Shown: positions 13,946 through 58,664, counted from the stretch's first letter. The stretch: DNA of 64,000 nucleotides from Brevinema andersonii (GCA_020722765.1 DYKD01000005.1:6327-70326), one strand, 5' to 3'. Notes: a model not told the origin generated them from the sequence alone. Numbers and translations: made by a program.

Positions 13946-14290
13946 ATGTCTACCCCCGCGTTTCTTGCTCCCAAAGCTCCTGTCATGTTGCATGGAGCTG
14001 ATTATAATCTTGAACAGTGGCTTGATTTTCCGGATGTCCTAAAAGAGGATATTAGGTTGATGAAACTTTCCAATATGAATGTCATGCACCTGGGCATTTT
14101 TCCCTGGTTAAAGCTTGAACCAGAAGAAGGAAAATTTGATTTCTCTTGGTTGGACAAGGTGATGGATTCCCTGTTTGAGAACGGGATTTTCACGGTTCTT
14201 GCGACTCCAAGTGGTGCCAGACCTGCCTGGATGGCTGAAAAGTACCCAGAAGTGCTGAGAGTGAACGGGATCAGACAGTGTCGATTATTT
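13946..14290 (+). pseudogene. N-terminal fragment (about 115 aa) of a GH42 beta-galactosidase; truncated remnant
   Basis: Translation 'HGADYNLEQWLDFPDVLKEDIRLMKLSNMNVMHLGIFPWLKLEPEEGKFDFSWLDKVMDSLFENGIFTVLATPSGARPAWMAEKYPEVL' matches the GH42 N-terminus. Reading frame then degenerates into T-homopolymer-rich junk (T9/T10 runs) and stops. Full GH42 enzymes are about 650-700 aa. Confidence 0.75.
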
Positions 14291-14489
14291 TCAATTTTTT
14301 TTTCTAAAAGGTTGACTTTTGCTTGGAGCATACTTATTTTTTTTTTAATAACGATAAAATATCCTGTTCGTTTTGCATCTTGATGTAATTGGAGTGACTG
14401 GTTTTTGCAATGGAGATACGCTTTGGATTTGAAGAATCAAATGTGTGTTGCTTTTAGGATTAATCAATTGTTATGATAGGAGGGTGGGT

Positions 14490-15161
14490 ATGTCAAACAT
14501 TGCATTATTGCATCTGTTGGTTGTCATGTTGCCTTTTTTGATTTTCGCTGATGAGGCGGACATAGTGTATAGCGTTCCGTCTGATGATAAGGTGGTTGCT
14601 CTTACTTTTGATGATGGGCCAAATCCAGAAGTAACACAAGGGTTCCTGGAAGTTTTAGGGAAAGAAGATATAAAAGCCACTTTTTTCTTAATTGGGAATA
14701 GGGCGAGACAGAATAAGTCTCTTGTGAAGGCATTATTTGATGCCGGGCATGAAATAGGGAATCATACTATGGATCATCTGAATCTTGCCCAATTAGATGA
14801 TAAGCGAAAGGTGAAGTTGCAGATTTCGAAGTTGCAGGCTTTGATAAAAAATATAACGGGCAAGAAACCTGATGTTTTTCGTGCTCCGTTCCTATCTTAT
14901 GATGATCATGTTTTTTTAGTTCTTAAGAATGAATCTCTCAGACCCATAAATGCATCTGTTGACACAAAAGATTGGATGGAGACCATGACTTCTGATGAAA
15001 TAGCCAATACGGTCATGGCTAAGATACATCCTGGTGCCATAGTTTTAATGCATGAACAAGCTCGTACTTTGAATGCCTTGCCTAAAATGATTTCCCAATT
15101 AAAGGAACAAGGGTATGAATTTTTGACTGTGACTGAACTTATAGGGCGAAAAAGGGAATAG
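14490..15161 (+). CDS. polysaccharide deacetylase (NodB-homology, CE4-like), secreted
   Basis: 'ALTFDDGPNPEV...ATFFLIGN...GHEIGNHTMDH' NodB motifs. Signal peptide. Start at ATG 14490 with GGAGGG RBS. Confidence 0.8.
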   Translation: MSNIALLHLLVVMLPFLIFADEADIVYSVPSDDKVVALTFDDGPNPEVTQGFLEVLGKEDIKATFFLIGNRARQNKSLVKALFDAGHEIGNHTMDHLNLAQLDDKRKVKLQISKLQALIKNITGKKPDVFRAPFLSYDDHVFLVLKNESLRPINASVDTKDWMETMTSDEIANTVMAKIHPGAIVLMHEQARTLNALPKMISQLKEQGYEFLTVTELIGRKRE

Positions 15162-15298
15162 AAACAATACCTTGACACATGGTGACAACGTACCGGCATA
15201 CCCGAAGTTTTGCGTCCGCCGTCAGGCGGTGGCATGTGTTTTTGCGATGGCTGCGAGCAAAAACCATGACAAGCAAAATTTGGGTGAGCGAAACCCTC

Positions 15299-15694
15299 CT
15301 AAATTAATTTTAGTCCGTATTTTGTATATTTTTCAAAAGTATCGTCTTGTGACATTAAAAAATAGCCCTTTTCAATTGCATACCAAATAATCATTCTATC
15401 AAATGGATCTTTATGGATATCTCTTGGTAATTTATAAAAAGATGATAATGTTTCATAATCAATATTTTCAATTGAAAAACCAGATTTTAAAATTACAGTT
15501 GGAATTTTATCAGGAAAAATTCCATTCAACTTAAGTTTGCCAATAGAGTATTTTAAGCTTATTTCAAATAATGAAATTGAACAACATACAATTTCATTAT
15601 CCGTAGCTTGTAAAACTTCTAATTCATTTTGAGATAGCTTTGAATCATCAAAAATTGAATGAAGTATGATTTGAGTGTCAATTAGTACTTTCAT
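15299..15694 (-). CDS. vapC: PIN-domain toxin (VapC-like)
   Basis: 'MKVLIDTQIIL...' with acidic PIN residues. Size 131 aa. 4-nt overlap with the upstream antitoxin gene. Confidence 0.7.
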   Translation of the reverse strand: MKVLIDTQIILHSIFDDSKLSQNELEVLQATDNEIVCCSISLFEISLKYSIGKLKLNGIFPDKIPTVILKSGFSIENIDYETLSSFYKLPRDIHKDPFDRMIIWYAIEKGYFLMSQDDTFEKYTKYGLKLI

Positions 15695-15927
15695 AACCCC
15701 AAAAGTTCATTATCAGTAATTTTAAAACCACTGGTTATTTTATATGACGCTTTGCCTTTTAATAAACCAAGATTCCGTTTTTTATTAAGATATTTTTTGT
15801 ATGGAATTATAACTCCAAGTTTTTCGTGGCTTTTTCCATATTCTATAGCGATGGTTTCACCATTTCTCACATTTTTCACAACATTAGAAAAATTTGCTTT
15901 TAAAAGGGCTATTGTCATTGTTTTCAT
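15691..15927 (-). CDS. phd: Phd/YefM-family antitoxin
   Basis: 'MKTMTIALLKANFSNVVKNVRNGETIAIEYGKSHEKLGVIIPYKKY' matches the Phd/YefM fold signature. Start set at internal Met; the track ORF extends 39 codons upstream through AT-rich sequence. Confidence 0.65.
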   Translation of the reverse strand: MKTMTIALLKANFSNVVKNVRNGETIAIEYGKSHEKLGVIIPYKKYLNKKRNLGLLKGKASYKITSGFKITDNELLGL

Positions 15928-15988
15928 GTCTAAAAGATAATATTTAAAGGACATGTTGTCAAGTAAAATTAAAAATAAAAAAAACAGC

Positions 15989-16034
15989 TTGACTTCTTTT
16001 GTAATGTTTTTGTATATTAGAAATAGACTAAAAT
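15989..16034 (+). promoter_or_regulatory. sigma70-like promoter (TTGACT-N18-TATATT) plus conserved downstream box for AraR-like regulator 1
   Basis: -35 TTGACT 15989-15994, -10 TATATT 16013-16018, followed by AGAAATAGACTAAAAT. The whole element is duplicated upstream of the paralog at 17294-17338. Confidence 0.55.
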
Positions 16035-16047
16035 GTGGAGTCAAGCT

Positions 16048-17178
16048 ATGATAAAACCAGAATTAGATTTTTCTTCAGAAATTCCCTTATATATGCAGTT
16101 GACTGAAATATTGACCACTGAGTTACTAACGAAGGGCTTTAAAGTGAATGATCCATTTTATACTGAAAAGGAATTGTTATCTCGATTTAATACCAGCTCT
16201 ATCACCATTAAAAGGGCAATGAGTATATTGGTAAAAAGGGATTTGATATATAGGCAGAGGAAGAAAGGCTCTTTTGTAAAATCACTGCAAATTGCAGAAA
16301 ATGGCAAACTGATTGGAAAAGATTTGGTAAAAACCATATTGTTCATTTTCCCGAAAACTGTCAAATATGCGGAAGTCAATTTTTTCTATTCATCCCTTTT
16401 GATGCAGATGGAGCTATCTTTAAGTTTGCGGAAATTCCGTTCTGAAATCTATACGAGCGGAGTTTCTGAAATCAAGGATGATGAAATTTTTTCCAGGATC
16501 AAGGAGAAAAAGTTTGCAGGAATTTTTCTCATAGGTGGTAGTTTCAGCAAAAAAATCGTAGATAGGGTCAGATTTTCAGGGTTACCTGCGGTCGTCGTGG
16601 ATAGTTTGGATTTATGGAGCGATTGTTATTCTATAAATATTGAAAACCTTTTAAGTGCCAAGACCATGACTGAATATCTGATACAGAATGGACATAAGGA
16701 CATTCTCTTTTTCGGGGTGAGGAATCATCCAATAAGCGCGGAAAGAGAGACCGGATTTCTTTCGGCATTAAGAGAGGCTGGTTTGGACGCTCATCCTGAC
16801 CGTATTCGCAGATGGAAGGGGTTTGAATTTGAAGGTGGTACGAGCCTCATGCAGACTGTTTTGGATGAGAGAAAAATTTTACCGACCGCTATTTTTGCGG
16901 CAAATGATGCGATGGCTATTGCTGCCATGAAAACAGCTATGATGAATGGACTGACGGTTCCCAATGATATCAGTTTTGTCGGGTTTGATAATGTTCCTAT
17001 GGCTTCTCAAATGCATCCTGGTCTGACAACGATGGATGTCCCTCTCGAAGAGATCGGGAAAAATTCAATCAGGCTGTTATTTGGTCAGATGGACAACGTT
17101 AAAATCCAGGAGCCTAATATCAGGATTAGGTCAAGATTGGTAGAAAGGGAATCAGTAAAAAAAATGGGTAACGTTTGA
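16048..17178 (+). CDS. AraR-type transcriptional regulator (GntR-family winged HTH + LacI/GalR-like sugar-binding domain), paralog 1
   Basis: N-terminal GntR HTH ('ELLSRFNTSSITIKRAMSILVKRDLIYRQRKKGSFV') and C-terminal periplasmic-binding-protein fold ('AIFAANDAMAIAAMK...ISFVGFDN'). Start ATG 16048 by analogy with the paralog (GGAG + 7 nt). Confidence 0.75.
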   Translation: MIKPELDFSSEIPLYMQLTEILTTELLTKGFKVNDPFYTEKELLSRFNTSSITIKRAMSILVKRDLIYRQRKKGSFVKSLQIAENGKLIGKDLVKTILFIFPKTVKYAEVNFFYSSLLMQMELSLSLRKFRSEIYTSGVSEIKDDEIFSRIKEKKFAGIFLIGGSFSKKIVDRVRFSGLPAVVVDSLDLWSDCYSINIENLLSAKTMTEYLIQNGHKDILFFGVRNHPISAERETGFLSALREAGLDAHPDRIRRWKGFEFEGGTSLMQTVLDERKILPTAIFAANDAMAIAAMKTAMMNGLTVPNDISFVGFDNVPMASQMHPGLTTMDVPLEEIGKNSIRLLFGQMDNVKIQEPNIRIRSRLVERESVKKMGNV

Positions 17179-17293
17179 TAAAAAAGTCAGATATTTTGAA
17201 CTTCAAGTAGCCATTCCTTTTTTTTGTCTTAATCTGCGTCTTGCTTCAGGAGAAAGTTTCAGTCTGTTTTTTTAGCTTTTTTTGAAAAAAGGC

Positions 17294-17338
17294 TTGACTT
17301 TTTTTATTATATTTAGTATATTACAAATAGACTAAAAC
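17294..17338 (+). promoter_or_regulatory. sigma70-like promoter (TTGACT-N17-TATATT) plus conserved box for AraR-like regulator 2
   Basis: -35 17294-17299, -10 17317-17322, then ACAAATAGACTAAAAC. Near-identical to the element at 15989-16034. Confidence 0.55.
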
Positions 17339-17351
17339 TTGGAGTAACTGT

Positions 17352-18470
17352 GTGACAAATTCTGATTTAGATTTTTCTTCAGAAGTTCCATTATACATGC
17401 AGTTAACAGAGATATTGACTTCTGAAATCATGAATAAAGGCTTTAAAGAGCATGATTCATTTTACACTGAAAAGGAATTGCAATCTAAATTTGATATTAG
17501 CCCTATCACCATCAAAAGGGCAATGAGCATTTTGGTTGATAGAAATCTTATTTACAGACGGAGAAAAAAAGGTTCTTTTATCAAATCATTGCAAGTTTCA
17601 AATCATAAGGGATCTGCAAAAGAGTCAGTAAAGACCATTCTTTTTCTTTTCCCTAAAACTGTCAAACATGCTGAAGTCAACTTTTTCTATTCATCTCTTC
17701 TGATGCAAATGGAATTGGCATTGAGCTTGCGGAAATATCGTTCTGAAATTCATACAAGCGGTATTTCTGAGATCAAAGATTCTGAATTATATTTAAAGAT
17801 CAAGGAGAAGAACATTGAGGGTATTTTCCTTATTGGAGGAAGTTTCAGTACGAAAATCATTGATTCAGTGAGGTTTTCGGGAATCCCTTCAGTCATAGTC
17901 GATTGTTTGGATTCATGGTCTGGTTGTTATTCTGTGAATGTTGAAAATTTCCTAAGTGCTAAGAAAATGACCGAATATCTGATACAGAATGGTCACAAGG
18001 ATATTGTTTTTTTGGGGGTTAAGAATCATCCTATTAGTGCTGAGCGAGAAACTGGTTTTCTCGCAGCATTGGAAGAGGCTGGTCTTGATGCCGATCCTGA
18101 TAAGATTCTCAGATGGAAAGGGTTTGAATTTGAGGGTGGGGCAAGCCTCATGCAATCTGTTTTGGATACGAAGAGGAATTTGCCATCTGCTGTTTTTGCT
18201 GCCAATGATGCCATGGCTATTGCGGCTATGAAAGTTGCTATGACGCATGGGTTGGTCATTCCCCGGGATATTAGTTTTGTCGGGTTTGATAATCTTCCTA
18301 TGGCTGCACAGATGCACCCTAGTTTGACTACCATGGATGTGGTACTGGAGAATATGGGTAAACACGCAGTAGAACTGATGGTGAACCAACTCGCAAATGT
18401 TGTTCCTGCAGAGCGAATGGTCAGAATAGACCCACAATTAGTTGAAAGAGAATCAGTGCTTAAGAAGTGA
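17352..18470 (+). CDS. AraR-type transcriptional regulator, paralog 2
   Basis: Collinear with paralog 1 (by eye about 70% identical). GTG start 7 nt after GGAG. Confidence 0.75.
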   Translation: MTNSDLDFSSEVPLYMQLTEILTSEIMNKGFKEHDSFYTEKELQSKFDISPITIKRAMSILVDRNLIYRRRKKGSFIKSLQVSNHKGSAKESVKTILFLFPKTVKHAEVNFFYSSLLMQMELALSLRKYRSEIHTSGISEIKDSELYLKIKEKNIEGIFLIGGSFSTKIIDSVRFSGIPSVIVDCLDSWSGCYSVNVENFLSAKKMTEYLIQNGHKDIVFLGVKNHPISAERETGFLAALEEAGLDADPDKILRWKGFEFEGGASLMQSVLDTKRNLPSAVFAANDAMAIAAMKVAMTHGLVIPRDISFVGFDNLPMAAQMHPSLTTMDVVLENMGKHAVELMVNQLANVVPAERMVRIDPQLVERESVLKK

Positions 18471-18505
18471 ATAGATTGATATTTTTATGGATTTTGGAGG
18501 TTTTC

Positions 18506-20596
18506 ATGAGAATTTTTAGTTTGATGGTTTTTAATCTCTTGCTTATTGGCACCTTGTTTGCCCAGACAGCTCAAAATATAAGTGTCAATAATTCAGTCCG
18601 TGGTTACAATACAATAAGTTTTTCACCAGCACCATCAGTTTCCCCAATGTGGTACAAGGTCTATTCTTCTCCCAATCCCATTATGAGTGTGGATGCAAGC
18701 GGTGTCAGATGTCTATCAGATCACTTTTTGGATTTATATCGTGATGGACAAGGGATTGGTGGATGGACAACAACATTTATGAGTGTTTCTGAGGTTTCTG
18801 GAGATGTCAATTCAGGAACTCATGCGATTAAGGCGACAAGTAGCGGTAATTATCAATTGTTTGCTTTTAACTGGAACAAATACATGGGGTCTGACAATGC
18901 TTCAGAGGCTACATCGCTTATCATGTATATTAAAAGATTGTCAGGTGCGACATCAGTCAAGGTGAGACTTAATTTCGTAAAAAATAATTATCAGACTTCA
19001 AATGTGACGATTTCGGGATTGACAACCTCATGGAAAAAGTATGAAATTCCGATTACAAGTTTTTCACAGGGTTGGGGGATGGCGAATTTAAAGACAAATT
19101 TAAAAACCTTAAAAGAGTTAGCAGTCATGTTTGATTCGGCGTCAGTCATCTCTTTTGATGATGTATCACTGTCTAAGGCGGTATTGACAAATTCACTTTC
19201 ATTCACCTATGGGGATCCGGCTTATGGTGTTGGCCTTGATTCGAGCGAAGGTCAATATTTCGCTGTCACTCATGTCTCGAATAACTTAGGTGAAAACAAG
19301 ACGATAGTTGCAGGGCAAAATTCCACTGTGAGTTCATACGCAAATACTCCAGTGAAAACTATTTTAGGTTTAAAAGGAGGGCTTGTTGTTGCTGAAAATG
19401 TTCCTCCTTACTGGGCTGAGGCGTCTTATTCATCAGCGGATTATATACGTATGCCTATTGATACTGATAATAATGGAGATTTTGATGTTAATCCAGGTCT
19501 TTCTGTCTCTGTCTCCAATTCTTTTGATGGTGATGGGGCCATGGCGATCTCTTATCATTCAAGTGAATGGGCTACTACAGGTATTGGGGATACCATCAGC
19601 ATAGTAAATGGGAAGGATATCTCCTTATATGATACGTTGGTATTTTGGGTAAAGGGGTTATACCTTGATTCAGAGAATTGGACTTCACCGGCAAGTGACG
19701 CTGTTCCTGCGTATAATGTCATGGAATTAAGTTTGCAGACACGGAAGCCAAGTCTTCTATCTCCATACTATATTTCTCTAAACGGGTTGACATCTGAATG
19801 GCAAAAGATATCGATTCCATTTTCAGCATTCGGTAATCCCTATCTCGGTATGGATTCATTCCAATTCTTGGTATTTAAATTTGCGGCGTATACAAAAGGG
19901 ACATTTCTGATTGATAAGATTATGGTTGAGAAAAACGGAGCCTCTCCCTCTTTTGAAGAGGCCTTTCAGGTGCTATCCGTTTATCCCAATGATGGAGCTA
20001 TGAATGTATCCTCAAAGTCGAAGATTTCAGTCCGTTTTAATCATCCTATAAGGAGTATGGGTTCTGGAATCAAGATACGTGAAGTGGCAATAACGAATAA
20101 TGTTACTAGAATAAGCAACGGTTTCACATTTAATCCGGATGCTACCATGGTGTCTGTTGACTTTGCATCTATGGATTTGCTTTTAAAGTCCGGGGTTGAG
20201 TATGAAGTTGAGGTTATGGCTGATATTATGGATGCCACGGGAAGTCCGTTAGGAACATCTTTTAAGTATCGTTTTACTGTGTCTGATGTGCTTGAGATTG
20301 GGGAAATCTCTTTTTCAGCCAATCCTTTCAATCCGGAATTGACGACGGACAATTATCTTTCTGTATTTGTATCTGATCCTGTCGCTGAAATCAAGGCTGT
20401 CTTATTTTCTCCCTCAGGGTCACCTGTCATTGTTTATGACGAAGAGAATTCCACTAAAGGGACTTCCACAGAGAAGAAGATCAAAATTACTGGAAAAAAT
20501 GCAGGGGGAGACTTTTTATCCCCTGGGCTATACATAGTACAGCTTGATGTGAATAAAGGTAAGAAGAAAGAGTATAAGACTCTGGTCATCAAATAA
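18506..20596 (+). CDS. secreted multidomain glycan-binding protein with T9SS type-A C-terminal sorting domain
   Basis: Signal peptide (MRIFSLMVFNLLLIGTLFAQ). Several CBM-like beta-sandwich segments. C-terminus 'NPFNPE...LSVFVSDPVAEIKAVLFSPSGSPVIVYDEE...GGDFLSPGLYIVQLDVN' matches the Por/T9SS CTD pattern. Start ATG 18506 with GGAGG RBS. Confidence 0.65.
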   Translation: MRIFSLMVFNLLLIGTLFAQTAQNISVNNSVRGYNTISFSPAPSVSPMWYKVYSSPNPIMSVDASGVRCLSDHFLDLYRDGQGIGGWTTTFMSVSEVSGDVNSGTHAIKATSSGNYQLFAFNWNKYMGSDNASEATSLIMYIKRLSGATSVKVRLNFVKNNYQTSNVTISGLTTSWKKYEIPITSFSQGWGMANLKTNLKTLKELAVMFDSASVISFDDVSLSKAVLTNSLSFTYGDPAYGVGLDSSEGQYFAVTHVSNNLGENKTIVAGQNSTVSSYANTPVKTILGLKGGLVVAENVPPYWAEASYSSADYIRMPIDTDNNGDFDVNPGLSVSVSNSFDGDGAMAISYHSSEWATTGIGDTISIVNGKDISLYDTLVFWVKGLYLDSENWTSPASDAVPAYNVMELSLQTRKPSLLSPYYISLNGLTSEWQKISIPFSAFGNPYLGMDSFQFLVFKFAAYTKGTFLIDKIMVEKNGASPSFEEAFQVLSVYPNDGAMNVSSKSKISVRFNHPIRSMGSGIKIREVAITNNVTRISNGFTFNPDATMVSVDFASMDLLLKSGVEYEVEVMADIMDATGSPLGTSFKYRFTVSDVLEIGEISFSANPFNPELTTDNYLSVFVSDPVAEIKAVLFSPSGSPVIVYDEENSTKGTSTEKKIKITGKNAGGDFLSPGLYIVQLDVNKGKKKEYKTLVIK

Positions 20597-20613: not shown

Positions 20614-21531
20614 ATGTTAAAAAAAATTCTGATTATTTCCTTGATCGTTTATGGGACTATGGCTTCAGGCGATGTATTTGTGGATAAAGGTGTTGGAGCT
20701 GCTTCTATCGCCATGGGAGGGCAATCGGTCGCAGTAGGGCAGGATATTTTTGCCCTGTATTGGAATCCTGGTGCTTTAGGTTTTTTAGAGGGGAACAGTA
20801 TTGGCGGTATGTATTCATATCGCTATGGACTCTCAGATATGGTCCACCAATTCATTGCGTCTGCTCTCTCGTATAATTTTATACAGGATAAATCCAAGTT
20901 TATTTTGGCTGCTGGCTATGAATCATTTGGAAGTGGGACTATTTACAACGAGGGTGTTTTGACTGGTACTGTAGTTTTTAACTTGAAAGGGAAATATTCC
21001 GCAGGATTAGCCATGAAATATATGCGATTAAGCGTAGGTGAGGATATTTCAACTTATGGTTTTGCGACCGACTTTGGAATTGATCTGCAATTAGGAGGGA
21101 TAGTATTTGTCGGGTATTCTGCAAAGAATCTCATTTCAACTCATTTGAAATATGATGGAACTGTTGGGACAACCCCCTTTGCCCGTGAGATTGTTTTGCC
21201 AATCAAGCATAAGGTGGGTATTGGGTTAAGTAAACAAAAAATCGGTAAAATAGAACTGGGAACTGATCTCCAATCTTTTAATATTGGGACGGAGCTGTCT
21301 ATACTTTCTTTTTTGAAAGGAAGATATGGTTTTTCAATAGATTTTGGTTCCATTACTGATTTGGATAGTTCTTCTATGCGTCGTATGGAACATGATTTCG
21401 GATTAGGTTTTAACGCCGGAAGGGTTAAGTTTGATTATTCTGTTTCCCTTGAAAGTGATTTGCCTTTGACCCATTTCTTTTCTGTGTCTGCGGTCTTTGG
21501 CAGCCCTAAGATTTTGAATGCATCTAATTAA
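20614..21531 (+). CDS. outer-membrane beta-barrel protein, FadL/PorV/PorQ-like (paralog a)
   Basis: Signal peptide. N-terminal 'GAASIAMGGQSVAVGQDIFALYWNPGALGF' signature of PorV/PorQ/UPF0164-type barrels. Alternating-hydrophobic strands. Lies directly downstream of a CTD cargo gene. Confidence 0.6.
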   Translation: MLKKILIISLIVYGTMASGDVFVDKGVGAASIAMGGQSVAVGQDIFALYWNPGALGFLEGNSIGGMYSYRYGLSDMVHQFIASALSYNFIQDKSKFILAAGYESFGSGTIYNEGVLTGTVVFNLKGKYSAGLAMKYMRLSVGEDISTYGFATDFGIDLQLGGIVFVGYSAKNLISTHLKYDGTVGTTPFAREIVLPIKHKVGIGLSKQKIGKIELGTDLQSFNIGTELSILSFLKGRYGFSIDFGSITDLDSSSMRRMEHDFGLGFNAGRVKFDYSVSLESDLPLTHFFSVSAVFGSPKILNASN

Positions 21532-21549
21532 TTTCATCAGGAGTTGTAT

Positions 21550-24453
21550 ATGTTAATCAGAAATAAATTAACTTTATTTGTTATAACGGTTTTCTTTTTC
21601 TTAGGAATTTCGGGTAATATACTGCTTAATGCACAGGAAGATGAAGAGACAGAGACTACAAAAGTTGAAACTGTGAAGAAGACTCCCAAACCTGCGGCAG
21701 ATGAGGAAGAGGCTGTTGTAGAGAAGCCGGCCAAAAAAGTGAAGAAGGCTCCTAAACCTGCAGTAGATGAGGAAGAATCAGATGAGGAAGAAGCTGTTGT
21801 TGAGAAGCCAGCAAAAAAAGTGAAGAAGGTTTCAAAACCAGTAGCAGATGAAGAAGAGTCAGATGAGGAAGAGGCTGTTGTTGAGAAGCCAGCAAAAAAA
21901 GTGAAGAAGGTTTCAAAACCTGCGGCAGATGAGGAAGAATTAGATGAGGAAGAGGCTGTTGTAGAGAAGCCGGCCAAAAAGGTGAAGAAGGTTTCAAAAC
22001 CTGCGGCAGATGAGGAAGAATTAGATGAGGAAGAGGCTGTTGTAGAGAAGCCGGCCAAAAAGGTGAAGAAGGTTTCAAAACCTGCGGCAGATGAGGAAGA
22101 ATTAGATGAGGAAGAGGCTGTTATTGAGAAGCCAGCTAAAAAGGTCAAGAAGGATCCAAAACAAGAAACTGCTGATGAAGAATTTGATAGTTCAAATGCT
22201 GGGCCTATATTGGAATTGGATGGGGAGGGGGGACAAATAGACCAAAGTATTACAGATGATAGTGATATAATTATTGAAGAGGAAATGATAAAAACTCCTG
22301 ATACAAAGCAGGATTCATCAACTTCAGCTAAAAAGAAGAAGCTCGTTAAAAAAACAAAAGAAAAAAAGGAGGCTTTTGGCAAGTTAGAGACTTTTGAAGA
22401 AGAACTGGGTTGGGATTATTGGTTTGGATCCGGGAATGACAGCCGTTTTAAACATGAACGAACCAAAAAAGATTCTTATGCTGGAAAATATTCATTATAT
22501 ATGGAATATGAGGTGGGGCTGAACTCTGCGGAGAATTGGATTCAAGCTGTAAGGAATTTTTCAAAGCCGTATAATATGTCTGGGAATAGAAGTCTTGTTT
22601 TTTGGCTGAAATCATCTGGAAAAGGTGGGACTTTGTCTGTAACTCTGACGAGTGCAGGAAAGTCCTATGTTTTTATGGACCATTTTGTATTATATAATCC
22701 GAATGGATGGGTAAAAGTAACTGTCCCGCTTACGGCTGCAATGAATGAGATCGATTTAAGTGCTGTTATGGGATATTCGATTGCTTTTCACGCGGGAATA
22801 CCAGTATCTGCCCTCAAAGAACAAAAAACTGCTGGATTGATTTATCCCATAAAATCAATACCCTTTAGGAATTTTCTATATATAGATGAGGTTTCTCTGG
22901 AAAAAGGAGGGAATAATTCTATTGATCCAGGGAAAATGACTGTTGACTATTCAGGCTCATTGAATGTTGCCTACAATAATAATGAATATACAGAGCCGAA
23001 TATGACATCACAATTGGCTGTGGATATTGCCCTCAATGCTGAAAAGTATGCTATTAATGCGAATCTCTCAGTCCCTGTCTCCTTTCCAGCGGAATACTTG
23101 CCTGGAACTTATGGGGATGAAGTCAGAATGCAGACTTATGATTTTACTTCTAAACAGTGGGATTGGAATTATGCCAGACCCATTTATGTCTATTCTTTGA
23201 ATGCTTCTCTTAATAAATTGAAGCCTTTTATTGACAGTATCATGTTTGGGAATTTATCTTTGGATTATGATACCCTTGCTGTTGGTGCTGTTTATAATCA
23301 AAATGGTGTAAATGCTAAGGGGACATTTCCTGATGCCTTTAAATATAGTACTTTTTATGCTAGCCAAAAGAGTGGCGGATATTCGATCGGGGGAATGGTT
23401 TCCCCCCTGTTGACACAAAAAATCCCTGGCTTGGAAATAACAACCGTTTTTCTGAATGATACGCGGAAAGGGAGGATTGTATCAGAGGATAACACTTTTC
23501 AATCGAGGGTTTATAAGAATTTCCAGAATTATGGCATTCATGGTGTTGAACGGATCAAGAATAGCAAGAAAAATAAAAAAATTGATGAGATTGTCTTAGA
23601 AGCTGCTTATTATCTTTCTTCAGAGGATAATATGGGGACTGCACTCCTTAGTCCGGATTATAGCAGGGAGGAGAATTTTGTTCCAGGCTATGTCTATCAA
23701 GGGAAAACGAATGACAGGCTTCTTACAGAAGATAATGCTTACAGGTTTGCATTGGTTTTTAACGGTATTGGCGGTCTCAACTTGAACCAGAAATTTGAGT
23801 TCAGAAAGATCGGGGCGAACTATATGGGCGTTGATACCAATACTTTGGCATGGCTTCCCTTTTTGGAATATAATGTAGGTAATAAGTTGCATGCGGAAGT
23901 TCAGGAAAATTCTGATATTTTGATAAAGTCCTATTGGAGAGATCAGTTTGGTGCTTTTTCAGAGACAAAGTTCACTATACAGAATCTTGATTTAAGTTGC
24001 CGTTTTGATTATGGTAGGCAGGATTCACGCCCAGAATATAGGTTTAAGAATATATCGGCTTCGGCAGGATATGGGCTTTATAAGTTCTATCTTTCATACG
24101 ATTTTGACTTGAGAAATTTCGAGAATATCAATTTCACTCCGGAAAATGAGAAAGGGCTTGCGCATGAACTGGGACTCCATTTCATGTTGGACAACAATAC
24201 TCTCATTAAAACAGCTTATGGTCTGTTCGATTACACTGAAAATGATTCTGTTGTCTATGATAATCAGACTTTTTATGTATATTTCAGCCATAGGATTTTA
24301 GCGAATATCGTCCTTTCAGGTGTTGCAAAGAATGTGATAGCGAATGCCCAGGAATCTGTACCTTCTATGATTTTGACAGGCAAAGAGAATTATCTTAAAG
24401 GTTCTATAGAGACCTATTCTTATTATAATCTGTTTCTCACTATAGCGTTTTAA
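21550..24453 (+). CDS. large outer-membrane protein: signal peptide + acidic/basic 27-aa tandem-repeat linker + CBM-like domain + C-terminal beta-barrel ending in Phe
   Basis: Repeat 'EKPAKKVKKVSKPAADEEELDEEEAVV' about 5.5 times. 'YAGKYSLYMEYEV...VFWLKSSGKGGTLSVTLTSAG' CBM-like domain. Last 500 aa show amphipathic beta-strand periodicity and a terminal '...YYNLFLTIAF' (C-terminal Phe typical of OMPs). ATG 21550 with AGGAG RBS. Confidence 0.55.
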   Translation: MLIRNKLTLFVITVFFFLGISGNILLNAQEDEETETTKVETVKKTPKPAADEEEAVVEKPAKKVKKAPKPAVDEEESDEEEAVVEKPAKKVKKVSKPVADEEESDEEEAVVEKPAKKVKKVSKPAADEEELDEEEAVVEKPAKKVKKVSKPAADEEELDEEEAVVEKPAKKVKKVSKPAADEEELDEEEAVIEKPAKKVKKDPKQETADEEFDSSNAGPILELDGEGGQIDQSITDDSDIIIEEEMIKTPDTKQDSSTSAKKKKLVKKTKEKKEAFGKLETFEEELGWDYWFGSGNDSRFKHERTKKDSYAGKYSLYMEYEVGLNSAENWIQAVRNFSKPYNMSGNRSLVFWLKSSGKGGTLSVTLTSAGKSYVFMDHFVLYNPNGWVKVTVPLTAAMNEIDLSAVMGYSIAFHAGIPVSALKEQKTAGLIYPIKSIPFRNFLYIDEVSLEKGGNNSIDPGKMTVDYSGSLNVAYNNNEYTEPNMTSQLAVDIALNAEKYAINANLSVPVSFPAEYLPGTYGDEVRMQTYDFTSKQWDWNYARPIYVYSLNASLNKLKPFIDSIMFGNLSLDYDTLAVGAVYNQNGVNAKGTFPDAFKYSTFYASQKSGGYSIGGMVSPLLTQKIPGLEITTVFLNDTRKGRIVSEDNTFQSRVYKNFQNYGIHGVERIKNSKKNKKIDEIVLEAAYYLSSEDNMGTALLSPDYSREENFVPGYVYQGKTNDRLLTEDNAYRFALVFNGIGGLNLNQKFEFRKIGANYMGVDTNTLAWLPFLEYNVGNKLHAEVQENSDILIKSYWRDQFGAFSETKFTIQNLDLSCRFDYGRQDSRPEYRFKNISASAGYGLYKFYLSYDFDLRNFENINFTPENEKGLAHELGLHFMLDNNTLIKTAYGLFDYTENDSVVYDNQTFYVYFSHRILANIVLSGVAKNVIANAQESVPSMILTGKENYLKGSIETYSYYNLFLTIAF
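21670..22160 (+). repeat. 81-bp tandem repeat array (five full units 21721-22125 plus partial flanking units) inside the 969-aa ORF
   Basis: Units at 21721, 21802, 21883, 21964, 22045. Units 4 and 5 are identical except for the last 3 nt. In-frame (27 codons per unit). The antisense 281-aa Ser-rich ORF (21537-22382) is an artefact of this repeat. Confidence 0.9.
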
Positions 24454-24474: not shown

Positions 24475-27186
24475 ATGACCCGTAAAATCCCGGTTGCTCT
24501 CTTTTCCTTGGTTCTGTCTTTAACTTTCTTCTGTTTGAATGATATGTATGCCCAAGATGATGACTTTAGCGGGTTAAACCGATATCGTTTATCAGATTTT
24601 AACGGCAGTTTGCAAGGTTGGTTTGTTGCCAAGGAATCAGAGAGTAAAATTGTCAATGTCATGATTGCCAAACCGAATGATGTTTTTTCAGATCCTGCAG
24701 ACAGGGTTGGCAGAGGAAATGGCGTTCTCAAGCTGGATTTAAAATATGGTGTTTCTTCCTGGGAATCTGGGATGATAAAAATGCATCCTTTCGAAGCGGA
24801 TTGGTCGAAGGTGGTCGCTATTCAGTTCGATGTCTACCTTGAGGAGGGAGGTCCCAATTTATTTGCCACTCCTTTTATCATGTCTGACCAGTGGTCGAAG
24901 TGGTCACAGGATAAGAAACAGACGCCACTTACTGGAGGGGAGTGGGTGACTGTCACTTATCTTCTCAAAGATCAGGAAAATATCGATGCCACTAAGATCA
25001 GTGCCCTCGGTTTGTTGATTTGGGGTCCCATTGCTTCTCCTTACGAAGGTTCTGTATATGTTGATAATATTGTCCTCATTTCAAAAGGGGAAATGTATGC
25101 CAAGCCTGTTCTTCCTACATTGGCAATCAAGTCGAAAAAGAATATAAAAATTACAATTGACCCTTCCAAAACAGGTGGTGAAGTCAGCTCCAATCTGATT
25201 TCGCTTAATTTTGGTGGTAACATGAGTGGTGATGAACGTCTCTTGAAATATTTGAAATATGCAGGTCCTGGCGGACTTTTCAGGAGTTGGTCTTTTGGTG
25301 ATTATGGGAATCAGATGCAGGCTGTCAATCCTTCAAAAGGAAAATATAATTGGAAAGAATATGATGCTTATATAAAGGACGTCATGAATGCTGGCTGGAA
25401 ACCTTTGATTACATTGGGGGAATGCCCCTTTTGGAATGCTCCCAAGGATAGTAGCGGGAAGCCAAATGTGAAAGGACCCCCGCTAAGTTTTGAAGCATGG
25501 GCGCAGATGGCAGCAGATTTTGTTTTCCATTATAATAAGGAGCTGGGGTTAGGGATCAAATATTGGGAAATTTGGAACGAGCCTGATTTGAGCATGTTCT
25601 GGCAAGGGACTGAAGCAGAATATAACCAGTTGGTTAAACTGGCATCTGAAGCTATGAAAAAGGTGGATCCCTCAATCACAATTTTAGCAGGGGCATGGGC
25701 AAACCCTTGGTCGATTTCAGCACGTGTGAAATCGTTATTGCGGGAGGCTCCCAAAGTGGATGTCGTTTCTTATCATAACTATCTGACTTCTCCCAAATCA
25801 AAAGAGCAGGTGATTTTCAAGAAAATCCCAACTTTGGAAGCCCCTGTTTATAAGAACAATCTGTTTTTGAAGGATATTGCCAAAGAGTTGCAATTATCAA
25901 AAGTCCCTTCCATGATGGTTTCTGAGATGAATATCACTGCGGATATTAATTATGACCCAAGGATCGAAACCATGTTATATGCCATGTATTGGGGATCGGC
26001 GTTATATCATTATGTCCATCAAAATTTGGATGCAGCAGTCTATTTTGATTTTGCAAATTTCAGCTTCGGTTTGATAGGACACAAAGCCAGACCTGTTTAT
26101 TATGTTTTCCCTTTGTTGATGAAGAAAGCCATGTTCCCTGGTTCTAAGTGGCTCAAAGTGGATGGGGAAGCGATTGATTTGAAGGTTTTGGCTCTGAAGA
26201 AGGATAATTACCTTAATATTGTTGTTCTTAACACATCGCAAGAGAATGTCCAATATGATGTTTCGTTTGATATTTTGAATCCGCCGGCAATTTCAGAATT
26301 CTATCTCTATAGGTTGGATGACAAGAATACTGGTGAAAAAACAATTGGAAAAGTACCGTATACTCCCGGTATGAAATTATCGTGTCCTCCCTATAGCATT
26401 TCCGTCCTCAAAGGAAAAGTTAATCCTGAAGGTAAATGGCCTGTCTTGGCTAAATATACTCCTGCGCCTTCTCTGGGAGCTTTGGGATTGGCCTCTTCTG
26501 GGCAATTCGTATTTAATGGTGAAAAAGCCATGTTTTCTTTGGCTAAGACACCTGTTAAACTCGATGGTAGTTTAGTTGAATATGCTTCATGCCAACCGAT
26601 AAAAGTTGGCAATGCGAAGAAAGTGACTGTCGGAAAAGATGTTTGGCAAGGAACATCAGATGCCAGTGCTGAGTTCTTTTTGATGTATGATGCTAAGAAT
26701 CTCTATGTGGCTGGGCATGTAGCTGATGATGTCGCCCTATTGAATAATCAGACGGAAAAGAATGATGTTTGGAATGGGGATGGTATTGAATTCTTGATTG
26801 GTACAAAGTACAATCATAATTCGAGAGATGAACGCGGTGAATATGATTACCAGTTATTCCTTATCCCTGCTTTTAATGATAAGGGGAGTGGGGTGAGAAC
26901 CATGCTGTATTCCGCATTTGGTCAGGGAACGGGTATCAGATCGCGCGAGTTGCTTGATAGCGCCATGTCAATAAAAAGGACTGGGACAGGGTATGATTTT
27001 GAGGCCAGAATCTCCATCAAAAACTTTCCTGAGTTAGCTTCGTTCAAATCTGGTGATGAATTCAGATTCGATATCGGATTAAACGATGCGGATGTTGAAA
27101 TACGAGATGTACAGTTGTATTGGAACGCTGAAGATGGTGGAGCTTGGAATAATCCGGATTTCTGGGGCGTTGCTAAACTGAAGTGA
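24475..27186 (+). CDS. clan GH-A glycoside hydrolase (GH39/GH5-like) with N-terminal CBM-like domain and C-terminal CBM9-like domain, secreted (paralog a)
   Basis: 'YWEIWNEPD' acid/base motif and 'ILAGAWANP...VVSYHNY' pattern. C-terminal 'WQGTSDASAEFFLMYDAKNLYVAGHVADD...DGIEFLIG' CBM9-like. Signal peptide. Confidence 0.65.
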   Translation: MTRKIPVALFSLVLSLTFFCLNDMYAQDDDFSGLNRYRLSDFNGSLQGWFVAKESESKIVNVMIAKPNDVFSDPADRVGRGNGVLKLDLKYGVSSWESGMIKMHPFEADWSKVVAIQFDVYLEEGGPNLFATPFIMSDQWSKWSQDKKQTPLTGGEWVTVTYLLKDQENIDATKISALGLLIWGPIASPYEGSVYVDNIVLISKGEMYAKPVLPTLAIKSKKNIKITIDPSKTGGEVSSNLISLNFGGNMSGDERLLKYLKYAGPGGLFRSWSFGDYGNQMQAVNPSKGKYNWKEYDAYIKDVMNAGWKPLITLGECPFWNAPKDSSGKPNVKGPPLSFEAWAQMAADFVFHYNKELGLGIKYWEIWNEPDLSMFWQGTEAEYNQLVKLASEAMKKVDPSITILAGAWANPWSISARVKSLLREAPKVDVVSYHNYLTSPKSKEQVIFKKIPTLEAPVYKNNLFLKDIAKELQLSKVPSMMVSEMNITADINYDPRIETMLYAMYWGSALYHYVHQNLDAAVYFDFANFSFGLIGHKARPVYYVFPLLMKKAMFPGSKWLKVDGEAIDLKVLALKKDNYLNIVVLNTSQENVQYDVSFDILNPPAISEFYLYRLDDKNTGEKTIGKVPYTPGMKLSCPPYSISVLKGKVNPEGKWPVLAKYTPAPSLGALGLASSGQFVFNGEKAMFSLAKTPVKLDGSLVEYASCQPIKVGNAKKVTVGKDVWQGTSDASAEFFLMYDAKNLYVAGHVADDVALLNNQTEKNDVWNGDGIEFLIGTKYNHNSRDERGEYDYQLFLIPAFNDKGSGVRTMLYSAFGQGTGIRSRELLDSAMSIKRTGTGYDFEARISIKNFPELASFKSGDEFRFDIGLNDADVEIRDVQLYWNAEDGGAWNNPDFWGVAKLK

Positions 27187-27894: not shown

Positions 27895-29232
27895 ATGAAG
27901 AATTTTTTATTATTGACATTTTTTTATCTTGGTTTTTTCAGTGTTGTGCATGCCAGTTTTGATTATTTAGGCCGTTATCCTGCCAGTGATTCCCTTGCAG
28001 GCGCTTATGTTGCTGGGGACGGTGTGGAATCCATCAACTTCAACGTTGCTGGTTTAGCTTCTGATTTTAAGAATGGTTTTTCTTTCAGATATATGGGCTT
28101 GAAGCAGGATGTTGTGTCAAAACAGGTTTCAGTTATTGGGGGAAGTCTCTTTTTTACTTCAGCCTCAGGTGTTTCTACAGGCCTTTTTATGGATTTTTTC
28201 GATGTTGCTTCAATCTATAGGGAATATTTTTTCAGTATCCCTTTCGTCTATTCTCATGCCGCTCATAAAGGGAATTCTATCAGCTACGTCGCTTTAGGTG
28301 TTGCGCTAAAAATGTTCTCGTGGTCTTCTGTTTCGGATGGGAGTGAGAAACTTTCCATACGGCCGACAGTCAATGCGGATATTGGGTTGCGTTTAGGTGT
28401 GCTTGAGACTTTCTTTTGGGGAGTTTCTGTCCGTAACCTCTTGCCTGTAACTGTTTCTCTTGATCTCAATACCTCTGCTGAAAAGATGGCACCAGAATTG
28501 ACTTCAGGATTTCTTTTCCCGTTTGTCGTCTCTCAGAGTCTTGTAGATAAAATTTCCTGGTATCTTGATTTTTCGCGGCAGTTCCAATTTGCCGAGTATT
28601 CTTCCAAGATGAGATATGCTTCTGGTATGGAGTTCAGTATGGGGAACAGCCTGTTCAAAATAAGGGGAGGCTTGGCTATTGATGACCCAGATGACGAAGC
28701 ATTTGTCTTTAAGCCTGCATTTGGTTTTGGTATCGGAGTGGGGAAAGCCTCATCGTATGAAATGGATTTAAGTTACAGGACTTCGTATGCTTCGCAATTC
28801 GGTTTTTTTAATTTTTCCGTCAAGATAGGATTTTTAGGGAAGCCTCATACATCTGAATACTCTGATGTTGGCACTGGACCATCCGCTGACAGGACTGAAC
28901 AACCAGCAGATGATATTGCTGCTGAAACTCCTATTGTCACTACAATCGAAAAAGAGAAGCCTGATAAAAACAAGATCCGTTTTTCCATGCCATCAGGAGA
29001 GTATGAAAATCCGTTTATCCTGGAGATGACCCCGCAACTAGAATGTATGTTATATCTTACTATGGATGGATCTGACCCGGATTTGGATTCTTACAAGGTT
29101 CAGTTTACGGGAAAACCCATAAAAATCAAGATTAAGAAATCGACTGTATTGAAAATACTTGTTGTTACTCCAGGCATAGAAAATGATACAATCTATACAA
29201 AGTCGTATTCTTTACTGGATGAAGGGAGTTGA
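27895..29232 (+). CDS. outer-membrane beta-barrel protein, FadL/PorV/PorQ-like (paralog b) with extra C-terminal Ig/FN3-like domain
   Basis: Signal peptide. 'ASDSLAGAYVAGDGVESINFNVAGLA' N-terminal signature. About 300-aa barrel, then an acidic linker and a 110-aa beta-sandwich tail. Directly downstream of cargo genes. Confidence 0.55.
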   Translation: MKNFLLLTFFYLGFFSVVHASFDYLGRYPASDSLAGAYVAGDGVESINFNVAGLASDFKNGFSFRYMGLKQDVVSKQVSVIGGSLFFTSASGVSTGLFMDFFDVASIYREYFFSIPFVYSHAAHKGNSISYVALGVALKMFSWSSVSDGSEKLSIRPTVNADIGLRLGVLETFFWGVSVRNLLPVTVSLDLNTSAEKMAPELTSGFLFPFVVSQSLVDKISWYLDFSRQFQFAEYSSKMRYASGMEFSMGNSLFKIRGGLAIDDPDDEAFVFKPAFGFGIGVGKASSYEMDLSYRTSYASQFGFFNFSVKIGFLGKPHTSEYSDVGTGPSADRTEQPADDIAAETPIVTTIEKEKPDKNKIRFSMPSGEYENPFILEMTPQLECMLYLTMDGSDPDLDSYKVQFTGKPIKIKIKKSTVLKILVVTPGIENDTIYTKSYSLLDEGS

Positions 29233-36784: not shown

Positions 36785-36827
36785 CAAGATTTAAAGAAAA
36801 AAAATAAAATTATTTTTGGAGGTTCCC

Positions 36828-41224: not shown

Positions 41225-42157
41225 ATGAAAATCAGAAAAATGCTTGTTGTTCTCGGAACGATTTTTGTTTTGTCAACACTTCTGTCAGCAGGTGGAGAAT
41301 CAGGGATGATTTTTATGCGCCTTTCCCCTGATGCCAGGGGGAATTCATTAGCAGGATCTATAATCGGAAATGTAGATACATTGAGCAGTCTGGTATGGAA
41401 TCCTGCAGGGCTTGCAAAAATGACCAAAAAAAATGTTCAATTCTCCTACACTCGTTGGATAGCCGACATGAATCATATATATTTGGCGTATGGCATGCCA
41501 CTCGTAAAGATCAAATATGGTAAAATAGCTACAAGTCTTGTCTTTTTCAGTCAAGGGTTATTGGATCAGACAACAGGTCTTGATACCGATTTGTCTGGAT
41601 TGGACTCTTATGACCTATCGTTGACTGTCGGTTATGGGAAAACATTCGGAAGTGCCCAAATTGGCGGAAGCTTGCATTATATCACAAGTAAAATTCTCGG
41701 AGAAAGTTTAAGTGGGATGGCATTGGATTTCGGGACGCAGTATGCTTTTGACAAGAAGAAAAGGTATAAGGCCGGATTTGTCTTGAAGAATGTAGGGTTC
41801 AATACCATGTCGGAATCAATGCCCATGTTAGTCCAATTGGGATTTGGCGCGAAATTTCTGCAGGCTTCTGATATTATTTTGGCCAATATCAGTGGAGATT
41901 ATGTTGTGGCAGAACAGGATATGATAGTTCGGTTGGGCATGGAATATGGAATTAAAAAAATGGTTTTTTTGAGAGCTGGGTATAAATACGAGTCCGGTTC
42001 TTCCACTTTAGGTGGGGTGAAAGGGCTGACACTTGGTATTGGCGGTAATTTTAAGCCCGCTATCGATTTTGTCAAAACATTCAATGCTGATATAACCTGG
42101 ATACCAGTTGGAGAGTTAGGGAATTCTGTTCAGTTTACAATAGGCGCGAAATTCTGA
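41225..42157 (+). CDS. outer-membrane beta-barrel protein, FadL/PorV/PorQ-like (paralog c)
   Basis: Signal peptide. 'SPDARGNSLAGSIIGNVDTLSSLVWNPAGLA' signature. Ends '...VQFTIGAKF' (C-terminal Phe). Directly downstream of the CTD cargo gene at 36828. Confidence 0.6.
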   Translation: MKIRKMLVVLGTIFVLSTLLSAGGESGMIFMRLSPDARGNSLAGSIIGNVDTLSSLVWNPAGLAKMTKKNVQFSYTRWIADMNHIYLAYGMPLVKIKYGKIATSLVFFSQGLLDQTTGLDTDLSGLDSYDLSLTVGYGKTFGSAQIGGSLHYITSKILGESLSGMALDFGTQYAFDKKKRYKAGFVLKNVGFNTMSESMPMLVQLGFGAKFLQASDIILANISGDYVVAEQDMIVRLGMEYGIKKMVFLRAGYKYESGSSTLGGVKGLTLGIGGNFKPAIDFVKTFNADITWIPVGELGNSVQFTIGAKF

Positions 42158-44753: not shown

Positions 44754-44804
44754 TCCAGGATGAGCCATGAGCCTCTTTTATGATTACCCGTTGGAGGGAT
44801 GTAT

Positions 44805-50661: not shown

Positions 50662-50692
50662 TAATGCAATTCATATTCCAAAGGAGTTTTTG

Positions 50693-57911: not shown

Positions 57912-58664
57912 ATGAATATTCTTCTTACAAACGATGATGGCATAGAAAGTTCCTCCTTGCAGCCCCTTGCTGCTAAGTTGCGTAAGTTGGGAAGGGTGAT
58001 GATTGTTGTTCCGGATCAGGAACGTAGTGGTGCAAGCCATTCTATCACCCTTTCAAAACCGTTGCGGTTGGTTCCAATAAAAAAAGATGTTTATACTCTG
58101 GATGGGACTCCCACAGACTGTGTTGAAGTTGTCCTTCAGGGTGGATTGGGAAAAATAAGGATCAACCTTGTCGTGTCCGGTATCAACAGAGGACCTAACC
58201 TTTGTGAAGATGTCTTCTATTCCGGAACTGTAGCAGCTGCACGTGAGGGAGCATTGTTCGGTATCCCTTCCCTTGCAGTCTCATTGGATTCTTTTGCTGG
58301 AAAACCTGATTATCGTTTTGGCATAAGCTTTGTTACAAAGTTTATTGCTGAAAACAGTTTTTATCCAGGTCAGCTTCTCAACATAAATATTCCGGATCTT
58401 CCTGCTGAAAAAATCAAGGGTGTTGCCATGACTCGTCTTGGTTGGCGGAGGTACAAGGATGTCCTTTACAGGAGGAAAGACCCTTGGGGAAATCCATATT
58501 TCTGGATGCAAGGGAAGGGAATCACATACAGCAGGAATAATGGTGATGATTGTGCTGAAGTCAAGAAAGGCTATGTGAGCATAACTCCCCTCGGTCTTGA
58601 TCTTACAAACTTGACTGATCTGGAAATCCTTGGAAAGAAGCTTAAAGGGGTGACACATGGCTGA
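57912..58664 (+). CDS. surE: 5'/3'-nucleotidase SurE
   Basis: 'MNILLTNDDGIES...' N-terminus and 'GINRGPNLCEDVFYSGTVAAAREG' motif. Confidence 0.85.
   Translation: MNILLTNDDGIESSSLQPLAAKLRKLGRVMIVVPDQERSGASHSITLSKPLRLVPIKKDVYTLDGTPTDCVEVVLQGGLGKIRINLVVSGINRGPNLCEDVFYSGTVAAAREGALFGIPSLAVSLDSFAGKPDYRFGISFVTKFIAENSFYPGQLLNINIPDLPAEKIKGVAMTRLGWRRYKDVLYRRKDPWGNPYFWMQGKGITYSRNNGDDCAEVKKGYVSITPLGLDLTNLTDLEILGKKLKGVTHG

Follow-up and report, generated by a model that had tools for sequence, protein, structure and literature searches.

We find that a 64,000-nt stretch of DNA from Brevinema andersonii (GCA_020722765.1, DYKD01000005.1:6327-70326; the whole stretch is referred to here as the window) encodes, at 21550..24453 on the plus strand, a predicted outer-membrane protein in which a carbohydrate-binding module (CBM)-like beta-sandwich is followed by a large C-terminal beta-barrel. 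[quoted passage not shown] The evidence lies in the modelled folds of the two domains, in the conservation of the C-terminal beta-signal, in a three-gene cassette in which homologs of the gene recur, and in the linkage of this cassette to genes for carbohydrate-active enzymes (CAZymes). From these we infer transport, ligand, topology and complex formation.

The CBM-barrel protein

The open reading frame (ORF) extends over 21544..24453 on the plus strand. A TTG start would give 969 aa, and the ATG at 21550, which has AGGAG 7 nt upstream, gives 967 aa; the public database record of the protein is identical at 967 aa and agrees with the ATG start. An initial annotation of this DNA had described a chimeric protein with a signal peptide, an acidic/basic repeat, a CBM-like module, a barrel and a terminal Phe. 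The gene is real and every one of these elements is present, in the order signal peptide (aa 1-28), charged tail with repeats (aa 29-285), CBM-like sandwich (aa 286-452) and barrel (from aa ~466). An assembly chimera or a frameshift is ruled out, since the architecture of CBM and barrel recurs in independent assemblies (7 other complete proteins and 2 fragments). The signal peptide (21550..21633, plus strand), read from the translation, is of the Sec type, MLIRNKLTLFVITVFFFLGISGNILLNA followed by QEDE, and by inspection shows the n/h/c pattern with a cleavage site between LNA and Q. The protein is not a lipoprotein, since the region of the cleavage site lacks a lipobox Cys.

The C-terminal 502 residues (aa ~466-967, 22945..24450, plus strand) are predicted to form a transmembrane beta-barrel with ~23 strands as counted by DSSP. 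The AlphaFold model, which was built from 10 aligned sequences and covers aa 270-967, places the sandwich first and then ~23 long antiparallel strands that continue to the C-terminus, with a predicted local distance difference test score (pLDDT) of ~80 in the strands; aa 510-543, 570-583, 762-788 and 934-952 are the low-confidence stretches of the barrel. All 50 of the 50 PDB matches listed by Foldseek are outer-membrane barrels, at template modelling (TM) scores of just 0.2-0.45, and SprA, AlgE, ZnuD, OprC, Fiu, the FimD usher, porins, MtrB and SlpA/SDBC are among these listed matches. As modelled, the C-terminus is a generic transmembrane barrel of no specific structural family. Pfam and NCBIfam match no part of the target, and by sequence and family-profile search the barrel has no solved relative in the PDB.

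The protein ends in the beta-signal strand YYNLFLTIAF (24421..24450, plus strand), and a terminal Phe after an alternating hydrophobic (amphipathic) strand is found in 9/9 complete family members. The initial annotation had called the C-terminal region a barrel with this very hallmark at its end, and had named a non-barrel model and an unconserved Phe as outcomes that would speak against it; both were checked and neither came true, the model being a barrel rather than a sandwich or a solenoid. The best explanation of the model and the C-terminus is an outer-membrane protein, probably inserted by the beta-barrel assembly machinery (BAM), that belongs to an undescribed family.

The sandwich (aa ~286-452, 22405..22905, plus strand) is of the CBM11/CIA30 type and carries the family motifs YW.GSG, NW, GGT and IDE. 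Modelled alone with AlphaFold on 15 sequences it reaches a pLDDT of 88.6 and a predicted TM score (pTM) of 0.85, and its top PDB fold matches in Foldseek are the CBM59 module of 1wky, CBM11, CBM30, CBM4 and CBM22. The model compares with the CBM11 structures 1v0a/6r3m at TM 0.62-0.67, with a shared beta-jelly-roll fold. When the family profile was run against PDB sequences, the best match was CtCBM11 (1v0a, E=0.0017), and the Pfam CBM_11 model matches 5 of 10 family members, rising above the 27-bit cutoff in P0011 (32.7 bits) and P0018 (39.8 bits). The family near-invariant NW motif aligns in the profile alignment with Tyr53-Trp54 of CtCBM11, of which Tyr53 presumably lines the ligand cleft. 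The jelly-roll fold and the profile match are what the family has in common with CBM11 and the galactose-binding-like superfamily; in CtCBM11, from Lic26A-Cel5E of Clostridium thermocellum, the module is fused to a glycoside hydrolase, whereas here it is fused to a membrane barrel. The model, its CBM-family fold matches and the match to 1v0a thus uphold the description of the module as CBM-like, in the sense of a modelled fold and of distant kinship to CBM11/CIA30, and glycan binding is predicted.

Between signal peptide and sandwich lies a free N-terminal tail (aa 29-285, 21634..22404, plus strand) of which 51% is K/R/D/E and which has 17 Pro; from this composition it is probably disordered. 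The tail contains a tandem array (21698..22162, plus strand) of 5.7 copies of an 81-nt unit, or 27 aa, EKPAKKVKKVSKPAADEEELDEEEAVV (Tandem Repeats Finder, score 720, 92% matches), so that the tandem acidic/basic repeat of the initial annotation is confirmed. Each unit consists of a basic block EKPAKKVKKVSKP and then an acidic block AADEEELDEEEAVV. In the translation, aa 58-192 make up five complete 27-aa units, with degenerate copies on both flanks. Since the central copies differ by just 2-5 nt, the expansion is recent, and because the copies are nearly identical the copy number might be mis-assembled. Two minus-strand ORFs overlie the repeat (21537-22382, 281 aa; 21752-22078, 108 aa); their translations are repetitive and rich in S, F and A, and they are repeat by-products and almost certainly not genes.

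The tail ends in a short hydrophobic/acidic motif, ILELDGEGG...DSDIIIEEEMI, which by eye against P0002, P0004 and P0005 is semi-conserved; the family members with long tails share such a semi-conserved motif ahead of the sandwich. DSDIIIEEE of the target and GVIMFNDD and GVIIFDDA of P0004 and P0005 bear a loose resemblance to a TonB box, and to see a TonB-box-like handle in them is speculation. The charged tail itself is not a family trait, being absent or different in relatives. In P0002 it is acidic/basic, of different sequence and without the repeat array, in P0004-P0006 the region is coiled-coil-like by inspection, and in P0011, P0014 and P0018 the tail is missing and the signal peptide leads almost directly into the sandwich.

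A tiny family

A phmmer scan of 1.84 billion cluster representatives returned just 20 matches. Seven are full-length-like relatives, namely P0002 (46% identity), P0004, P0005 and P0006 (~28%) and P0011, P0014 and P0018 (~22-25%); the rest are 2 fragments and proteins that share the N-terminal module only. The family is thus tiny, with about 10 clusters among the 1.84 billion representatives. Scans of genome and metagenome contigs with the family alignment gave no further loci, and within the window no second ORF shows kinship with either the CBM or the barrel. Word-indexed searches that started from the sequence or from a 10-sequence profile gave back just the query and missed even P0002, so that they are no guide to family size. 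The 797-aa ORF that follows the barrel gene at 41225..42157 was considered as a paralog and ruled out, as it is a GH94 phosphorylase.

All named family members are annotated as hypothetical protein; P0006 is HMA99478.1, from a metagenome-assembled genome (MAG) labelled 'Spirochaetota bacterium'. The literature search turned up no description of a CBM-barrel fusion or of the three-gene cassette described below, and we have found the combination of a CBM11-like module with a large barrel described nowhere. Among the proteins with the N-terminal module, P0007 and P0009 have the same CBM11-like module 4-5 times in tandem, N-terminal to radical SAM and SPASM domains, which is an odd setting for a module called carbohydrate-binding.

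The three-gene cassette

The gene is the third of a cassette on the plus strand. The first gene (18467..20596) encodes protein X (709 aa), which has a signal peptide, an N-terminal part without assignment, a Big_5 Ig-like domain (Pfam) and an end, ...SPGLYIVQLDVNKGKKKEYKTLVIK, that resembles the type A C-terminal domain (CTD) of T9SS cargo; TIGR04183 matches at E=0.0037, below its cutoff. The second gene (20614..21531), which lies 18 nt upstream of the target, encodes a small PorV/PorQ-like outer-membrane barrel of 305 aa. It matches the NCBIfam model PorV_fam (NF033709) at E=1.1e-15 and 58.1 bits, under the 90-bit cutoff, and its sole PDB sequence match is PorV (6h3i_F, E=6.7e-6, over the N-terminal 88 aa). 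By sequence it is best called PorV-like, a distant relative of the PorV/PorQ family.

Encoding contigs were recovered for 7 homologs of the target, and in 7/7 loci a PorV-like homolog directly precedes the target homolog in the same orientation. It diverges in step with the target, with 43% identity in L001 against 46% for the target, and 20-28% elsewhere. The first cassette gene encodes a secreted protein of 460-753 aa, ending in ...PGxYxV...K.YKTxVIK, in 6/6 loci with enough contig; this CTD-like ending is shared by the equivalents of X in L001, L002, L004, L006, L008 and L009. The CBM-barrel is a third, equally conserved member of the cassette.

Cognate PorV-like barrels have been proposed to retain the CTDs of specific T9SS cargo, as for PorZ/PorQ and PorU/PorV and for type B CTDs with PorP-like proteins (PMC10202324), which would explain why X and the PorV-like barrel are adjacent. 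The 305-aa barrel is probably the cognate anchor of protein X.

The operon holds three PorV/PorQ-like barrels, two of which directly follow proteins with T9SS-type CTDs. The second of the three (27895..29232, plus strand, 445 aa) is PorV-like, with an extra C-terminal CHB_HEX_C domain (Pfam CHB_HEX_C_1), and matches at E=1.6e-19 a hidden Markov model of the 8 cassette partners from the window and the 7 loci. The third (41225..42157, plus strand) is a PorV/PorQ-family barrel (NF033709, 138.8 bits at a cutoff of 90; PorQ, E=6.5e-28). It directly follows a double SGNH esterase of 1457 aa (36816-41189, plus strand) with a PorU-CTD-like end, the C-terminus of which matches the C-terminal part of PorU at E=8.3e-15. 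The arrangement looks like locus-encoded pairs of cargo and anchor for attaching CAZymes to the cell surface. In the distant homolog locus L009 (1536-5275) a second run of two small PorV/UPF0164-like barrels is followed by a 648-aa protein without Pfam match, upstream of GH8. Possibly this is another cassette that follows a similar logic; no relation of the 648-aa protein to the target was detected.

The operon and the wider window

Between 17352 and 42157 all genes point the same way and are spaced at -61 to +35 nt. At the head of this packed run is a regulator (17352..18470, plus strand) that combines a GntR-type helix-turn-helix (HTH) with a LacI-type sugar-binding domain (Pfam); it and the gene at 16033-17178 are tandem paralogs, both with a GntR-type HTH and a LacI-type periplasmic-binding-protein sugar sensor domain. 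The order is regulator, X, 305-aa barrel, target, GH39-like enzyme with a C-terminal CBM9 (24475..27186, plus strand, Pfam), CBM30-like protein and 445-aa barrel, followed by a 1817-aa protein with GH8 and SGNH-esterase parts, a second GH39-like enzyme, the 1457-aa esterase and the PorQ-like barrel. Beyond the latter come a GH94 gene, two beta-helix proteins and a second GH94 gene. The GH94 genes (42360-44753 and 50690-53140) are of the cellobiose/cellodextrin phosphorylase type and their products are without signal peptides. The two parallel beta-helix proteins between them (44799-48746 and 48784-50661) have C-termini that are alike (...VRWVRW...V[VI][RK]).

The target therefore does sit, as the initial annotation had it, between a small outer-membrane protein and the GH39-like/CBM9 enzyme, and its homologs adjoin CAZymes in every locus recovered. 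In most homolog loci a GH9+CBM9 enzyme or a large CBM9 protein is directly downstream, with a CBM9-bearing protein directly after the target homolog in L002, L005, L006 and L009-L011, and GH94, GH3, GH8, GH44 and LacI-type regulators (the latter also in L001 and L004) are nearby. No TonB receptor, plug or SusD match was found in the 16 operon ORFs, and no SusD is present in the gene tables of the homolog loci. The idea in the initial annotation that the protein could be the uptake or capture component missing from the locus is reasonable, as the operon is without SusC/SusD or a TonB-dependent receptor.

The window ArgS (5423-7090) has one relative of 76% identity and then none above 56%. Its nearest named relatives, at 44-48% identity, are mostly MAGs of Spirochaetota/Spirochaetes, with some Firmicutes at similar identity, and against GTDB species representatives the best match has 45% identity, with mixed labels. 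The lineage appears to be outside Bacteroidota, and an affiliation with Spirochaetota is tentative. T9SS is usually considered a trait of Bacteroidota and the FCB group; T9SS-type CTDs and PorV/PorQ-like genes fill these loci, with a PorP/SprF-like gene in L009, despite the Spirochaetota leaning of ArgS. Just upstream of the CAZyme operon the GC content falls to 0.35-0.36 (window positions 14000-18000) against ~0.40-0.44 elsewhere, in a stretch around the regulators and a gene for a CE4 polysaccharide deacetylase (14445-15161). At the other end of the window a single tRNA-His (GTG) gene (59445-59518) lies upstream of a batA/batB-like VWA pair (60554-62619), with a TPR gene (58657-59370) before the tRNA.

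Discussion

We suggest that the CBM-barrel serves as the conduit through which oligosaccharides enter. Surface enzymes and binding proteins, anchored via PorV/Q-like barrels, would cut the polymer, and the freed cello- or gluco-oligosaccharides would pass the outer membrane through the target barrel. By binding the chain, either inside the lumen or at the mouth on the periplasmic side, the CBM-like domain could act as a specificity filter or a ratchet, and the charged tail would reach into the periplasm, where its short semi-conserved motif might contact a partner. To judge from the enzyme set and the kinship to CBM11, the substrates are beta-1,4 and mixed-linkage glucans, with hemicellulose side activities, and because the GH94 phosphorylases are cytoplasmic, the oligosaccharides are expected to be imported. 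The target barrel is favoured as their conduit since the operon has no other large outer-membrane channel. Barrels of 22-24 strands are the size class of substrate-specific transporters and ushers, and general porins have 16-18 strands.

Several observations weigh against this suggestion. The sandwich of the target itself reaches no Pfam CBM threshold and has no CBM_11 match at E<=1; its fold is equally close to relatives that are not lectins, namely CIA30 and FlaA1, a flagellar sheath protein of spirochaetes, and at ~11% sequence identity to CtCBM11 the ligand residues are not reliably alignable. The model of aa 270-967 is of moderate quality only (pLDDT 67.9, pTM 0.62), and DSSP counts 23 strands, an odd number, which means that at least one strand is mis-called and that there are probably 22 or 24. 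Furthermore, the PorV-like neighbour may serve the upstream CTD protein alone and be unconnected with the target barrel, and the operon has no gene for an inner-membrane sugar transporter. Finally, the rarity of the family means that it is no general solution to cellodextrin uptake.

A bolder version of the proposal, which we consider a long shot, would make the protein the founder of a new class of importer. Here the CBM sandwich would replace the plug of TonB-dependent transporters, bind glucan in or at the periplasmic mouth of the ~22-24-strand barrel, and work with the PorV/Q-like barrel and the T9SS-delivered surface binding protein as a Sus-like uptake machine built of T9SS parts. The hydrophobic/acidic motif of the tail could then be the handle by which a partner in the periplasm or the inner membrane gates the barrel.

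Where the CBM lies with respect to the membrane bears on the most serious alternative. N-terminal soluble domains of outer-membrane proteins stay in the periplasm or plug the lumen unless they take an autotransporter-type route, and because of this default topology the CBM is expected at the periplasmic mouth or in the lumen, a default expectation that we adopt. Loop-length parity as an indicator of side would have to be read from an odd strand count (23) and from first barrel loops of low confidence. The initial annotation had instead proposed that the module is presented at the surface on a flexible stalk. Neither part of that picture found support: the repeat precedes the CBM and only ~13 residues separate the modelled sandwich from the first barrel strand, so that the repeat is a free tail and not a stalk, and surface presentation of an N-terminal domain would need an autotransporter-like export for which we find no evidence.

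The alternative in question, which keeps the geometry of the initial annotation but drops the stalk, is that the protein is an anchor for surface display. The barrel, like an oversized autotransporter, would have the N-terminal CBM and tail exported, and the CBM would hold the cell to cellulose or glucan as a surface glycan-binding protein, without any channel. Fast-evolving charged, Pro-containing repeats are common in surface proteins. The near-identical repeats of the target are of this kind, a CBM11-like module type also occurs in secreted multi-domain proteins, and an N-terminal soluble module before a C-terminal barrel is formally like the type Va autotransporters, with which the target shares the order of signal peptide, soluble module, C-terminal barrel and terminal Phe. 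Adhesion to the substrate matters for contact-dependent cellulolysis (PMC12016534). However, the ~500-aa barrel of 22-24 strands has about twice the strand number of the 12-strand autotransporter barrel, there is no match to Pfam Autotransporter (PF03797) and no helical pore linker, and a link of ~13 residues between CBM and strand 1 is too short for both a pore-spanning linker and a stalk. A tail at the free N-terminus cannot be a stalk either, P0011, P0014 and P0018 do without it, and one gene of the cassette is already devoted to a surface protein with a CTD. We therefore regard surface display as unlikely, and favor the conduit.

Somewhat less probable still is that the target is a T9SS accessory, which docks its PorV/Q-like neighbour in the manner of SprA or PorQUZ and forms a platform for export or attachment of the CTD enzymes of the operon, its CBM-like domain binding protein as in the CIA30/FlaA type. 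The PorV-like gene is invariably adjacent, the sole PDB sequence match of the partner is the PorV of a SprA-PorV complex, several operon proteins have T9SS-type CTDs, L009 has a PorP/SprF gene, and for the whole model the lowest Foldseek E-values belong to SprA chains. SprA chains reach TM scores of just 0.17-0.20, however, which other barrels match; when PDB sequences were searched with the family profile, no SprA chain came up even at E<=10, and SprA has ~2,000-2,400 aa and 36 strands against the 502-aa barrel of the target. The adjacency of X and the PorV-like barrel alone would account for the PorV-like gene by the logic of cargo and anchor, and the CBM11 kinship together with the constant CAZyme neighbourhood favors a glycan ligand.

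We hold it very improbable that the protein is an envelope tether or structural porin comparable to OmpM, SlpA or Omp-alpha, with an N-terminal region that ties the outer membrane to the wall or inner membrane and a general porin for which the glycan operon is incidental: the tail is long and charged with a composition like that of a TonB spacer, the region is coiled-coil-like by inspection in P0004-P0006 with a weak SHOCT match in P0004, and SlpA/SDBC barrels are among the Foldseek matches listed, but no SLH, OmpA-like, LysM or other wall-binding domain was found in the target or family members with Pfam and NCBIfam, the tail is absent from a third of the family, which keeps CBM and barrel, and a strict linkage to CAZyme operons in 7/7 loci is unexpected for a housekeeping tether.

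The target belongs to none of the TonB-dependent, autotransporter, SprA and OmpM/SlpA families, the defining features of which were looked for and not found. With the SusC-like TonB-dependent transporters of Bacteroidota it has in common a large barrel of the 22-strand class in a co-regulated glycan operon, beside binding and hydrolytic proteins, and also the size layout, with a ~165-aa N-terminal globular domain before a ~500-aa barrel; ZnuD, OprC and Fiu are among the fold matches listed. In contrast to these transporters, none of 10 family members matches the plug (PF07715) or TonB_dep_Rec (PF00593) at E<=1, there is no SusD neighbour and nothing closer to a TonB box than the loosely similar motifs of the tail, the N-terminal domain is a CBM-type sandwich and the partner is a PorV/Q-like barrel. 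The protein had initially been called a SusC/SusD functional analogue; such a name would describe its genomic context, and the protein is not a SusC. The window also contains the elements of T9SS cargo-anchor pairs, in which small FadL-fold barrels of the PorV family stand next to CTD proteins, and has three such barrels. Compared with these pairs and with the SprA-PorV translocon, the target is neither a PorV-type barrel nor cargo, since its C-terminus is a barrel and a CTD is absent, and it is much smaller than SprA, to which it has no sequence similarity.

The closest functional precedent is the 'atypical cellulose PUL' (polysaccharide utilisation locus) chu_1276-chu_1280 of Cytophaga hutchinsonii, with which we compare our locus by its published description (PMC12016534). 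That cluster is of a non-SusC/D type and comprises the outer-membrane proteins CHU_1276 and CHU_1277, CHU_1279, which resembles a surface glycan-binding protein (SGBP-B-like), and the endoglucanase CHU_1280. In this T9SS-using organism, outer-membrane beta-barrel proteins of unassigned family are needed for cellulose use, as knockouts show, together with a binding protein of the CBM type and a cellulase (PMC12016534). The portion available mentions no CBM-barrel fusion and no PorV-like partner, and function there is shown by knockouts (PMC12016534), while here it is predicted.

How cellodextrins pass the outer membrane is an acknowledged open question in Gram-negative cellulolytic bacteria without a Sus system, such as Fibrobacter and Cytophaga (PMC6851124; PMC12016534). 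The locus described here offers a concrete candidate, namely a barrel with a glucan-type binding module in the same polypeptide, genetically tied to a PorV-like barrel and to a surface protein with a CTD, in operons that have cytoplasmic cellodextrin phosphorylases at their end. Should the proposal be true, it would add a second, non-TonB architecture for the capture and uptake of glycans, and it would mean that anchor modules of the T9SS have been reused for complexes of nutrient uptake. The three-gene cassette would then also serve as an annotation marker for glucan utilisation loci in uncultured lineages, where prediction of such loci from SusC/D fails.

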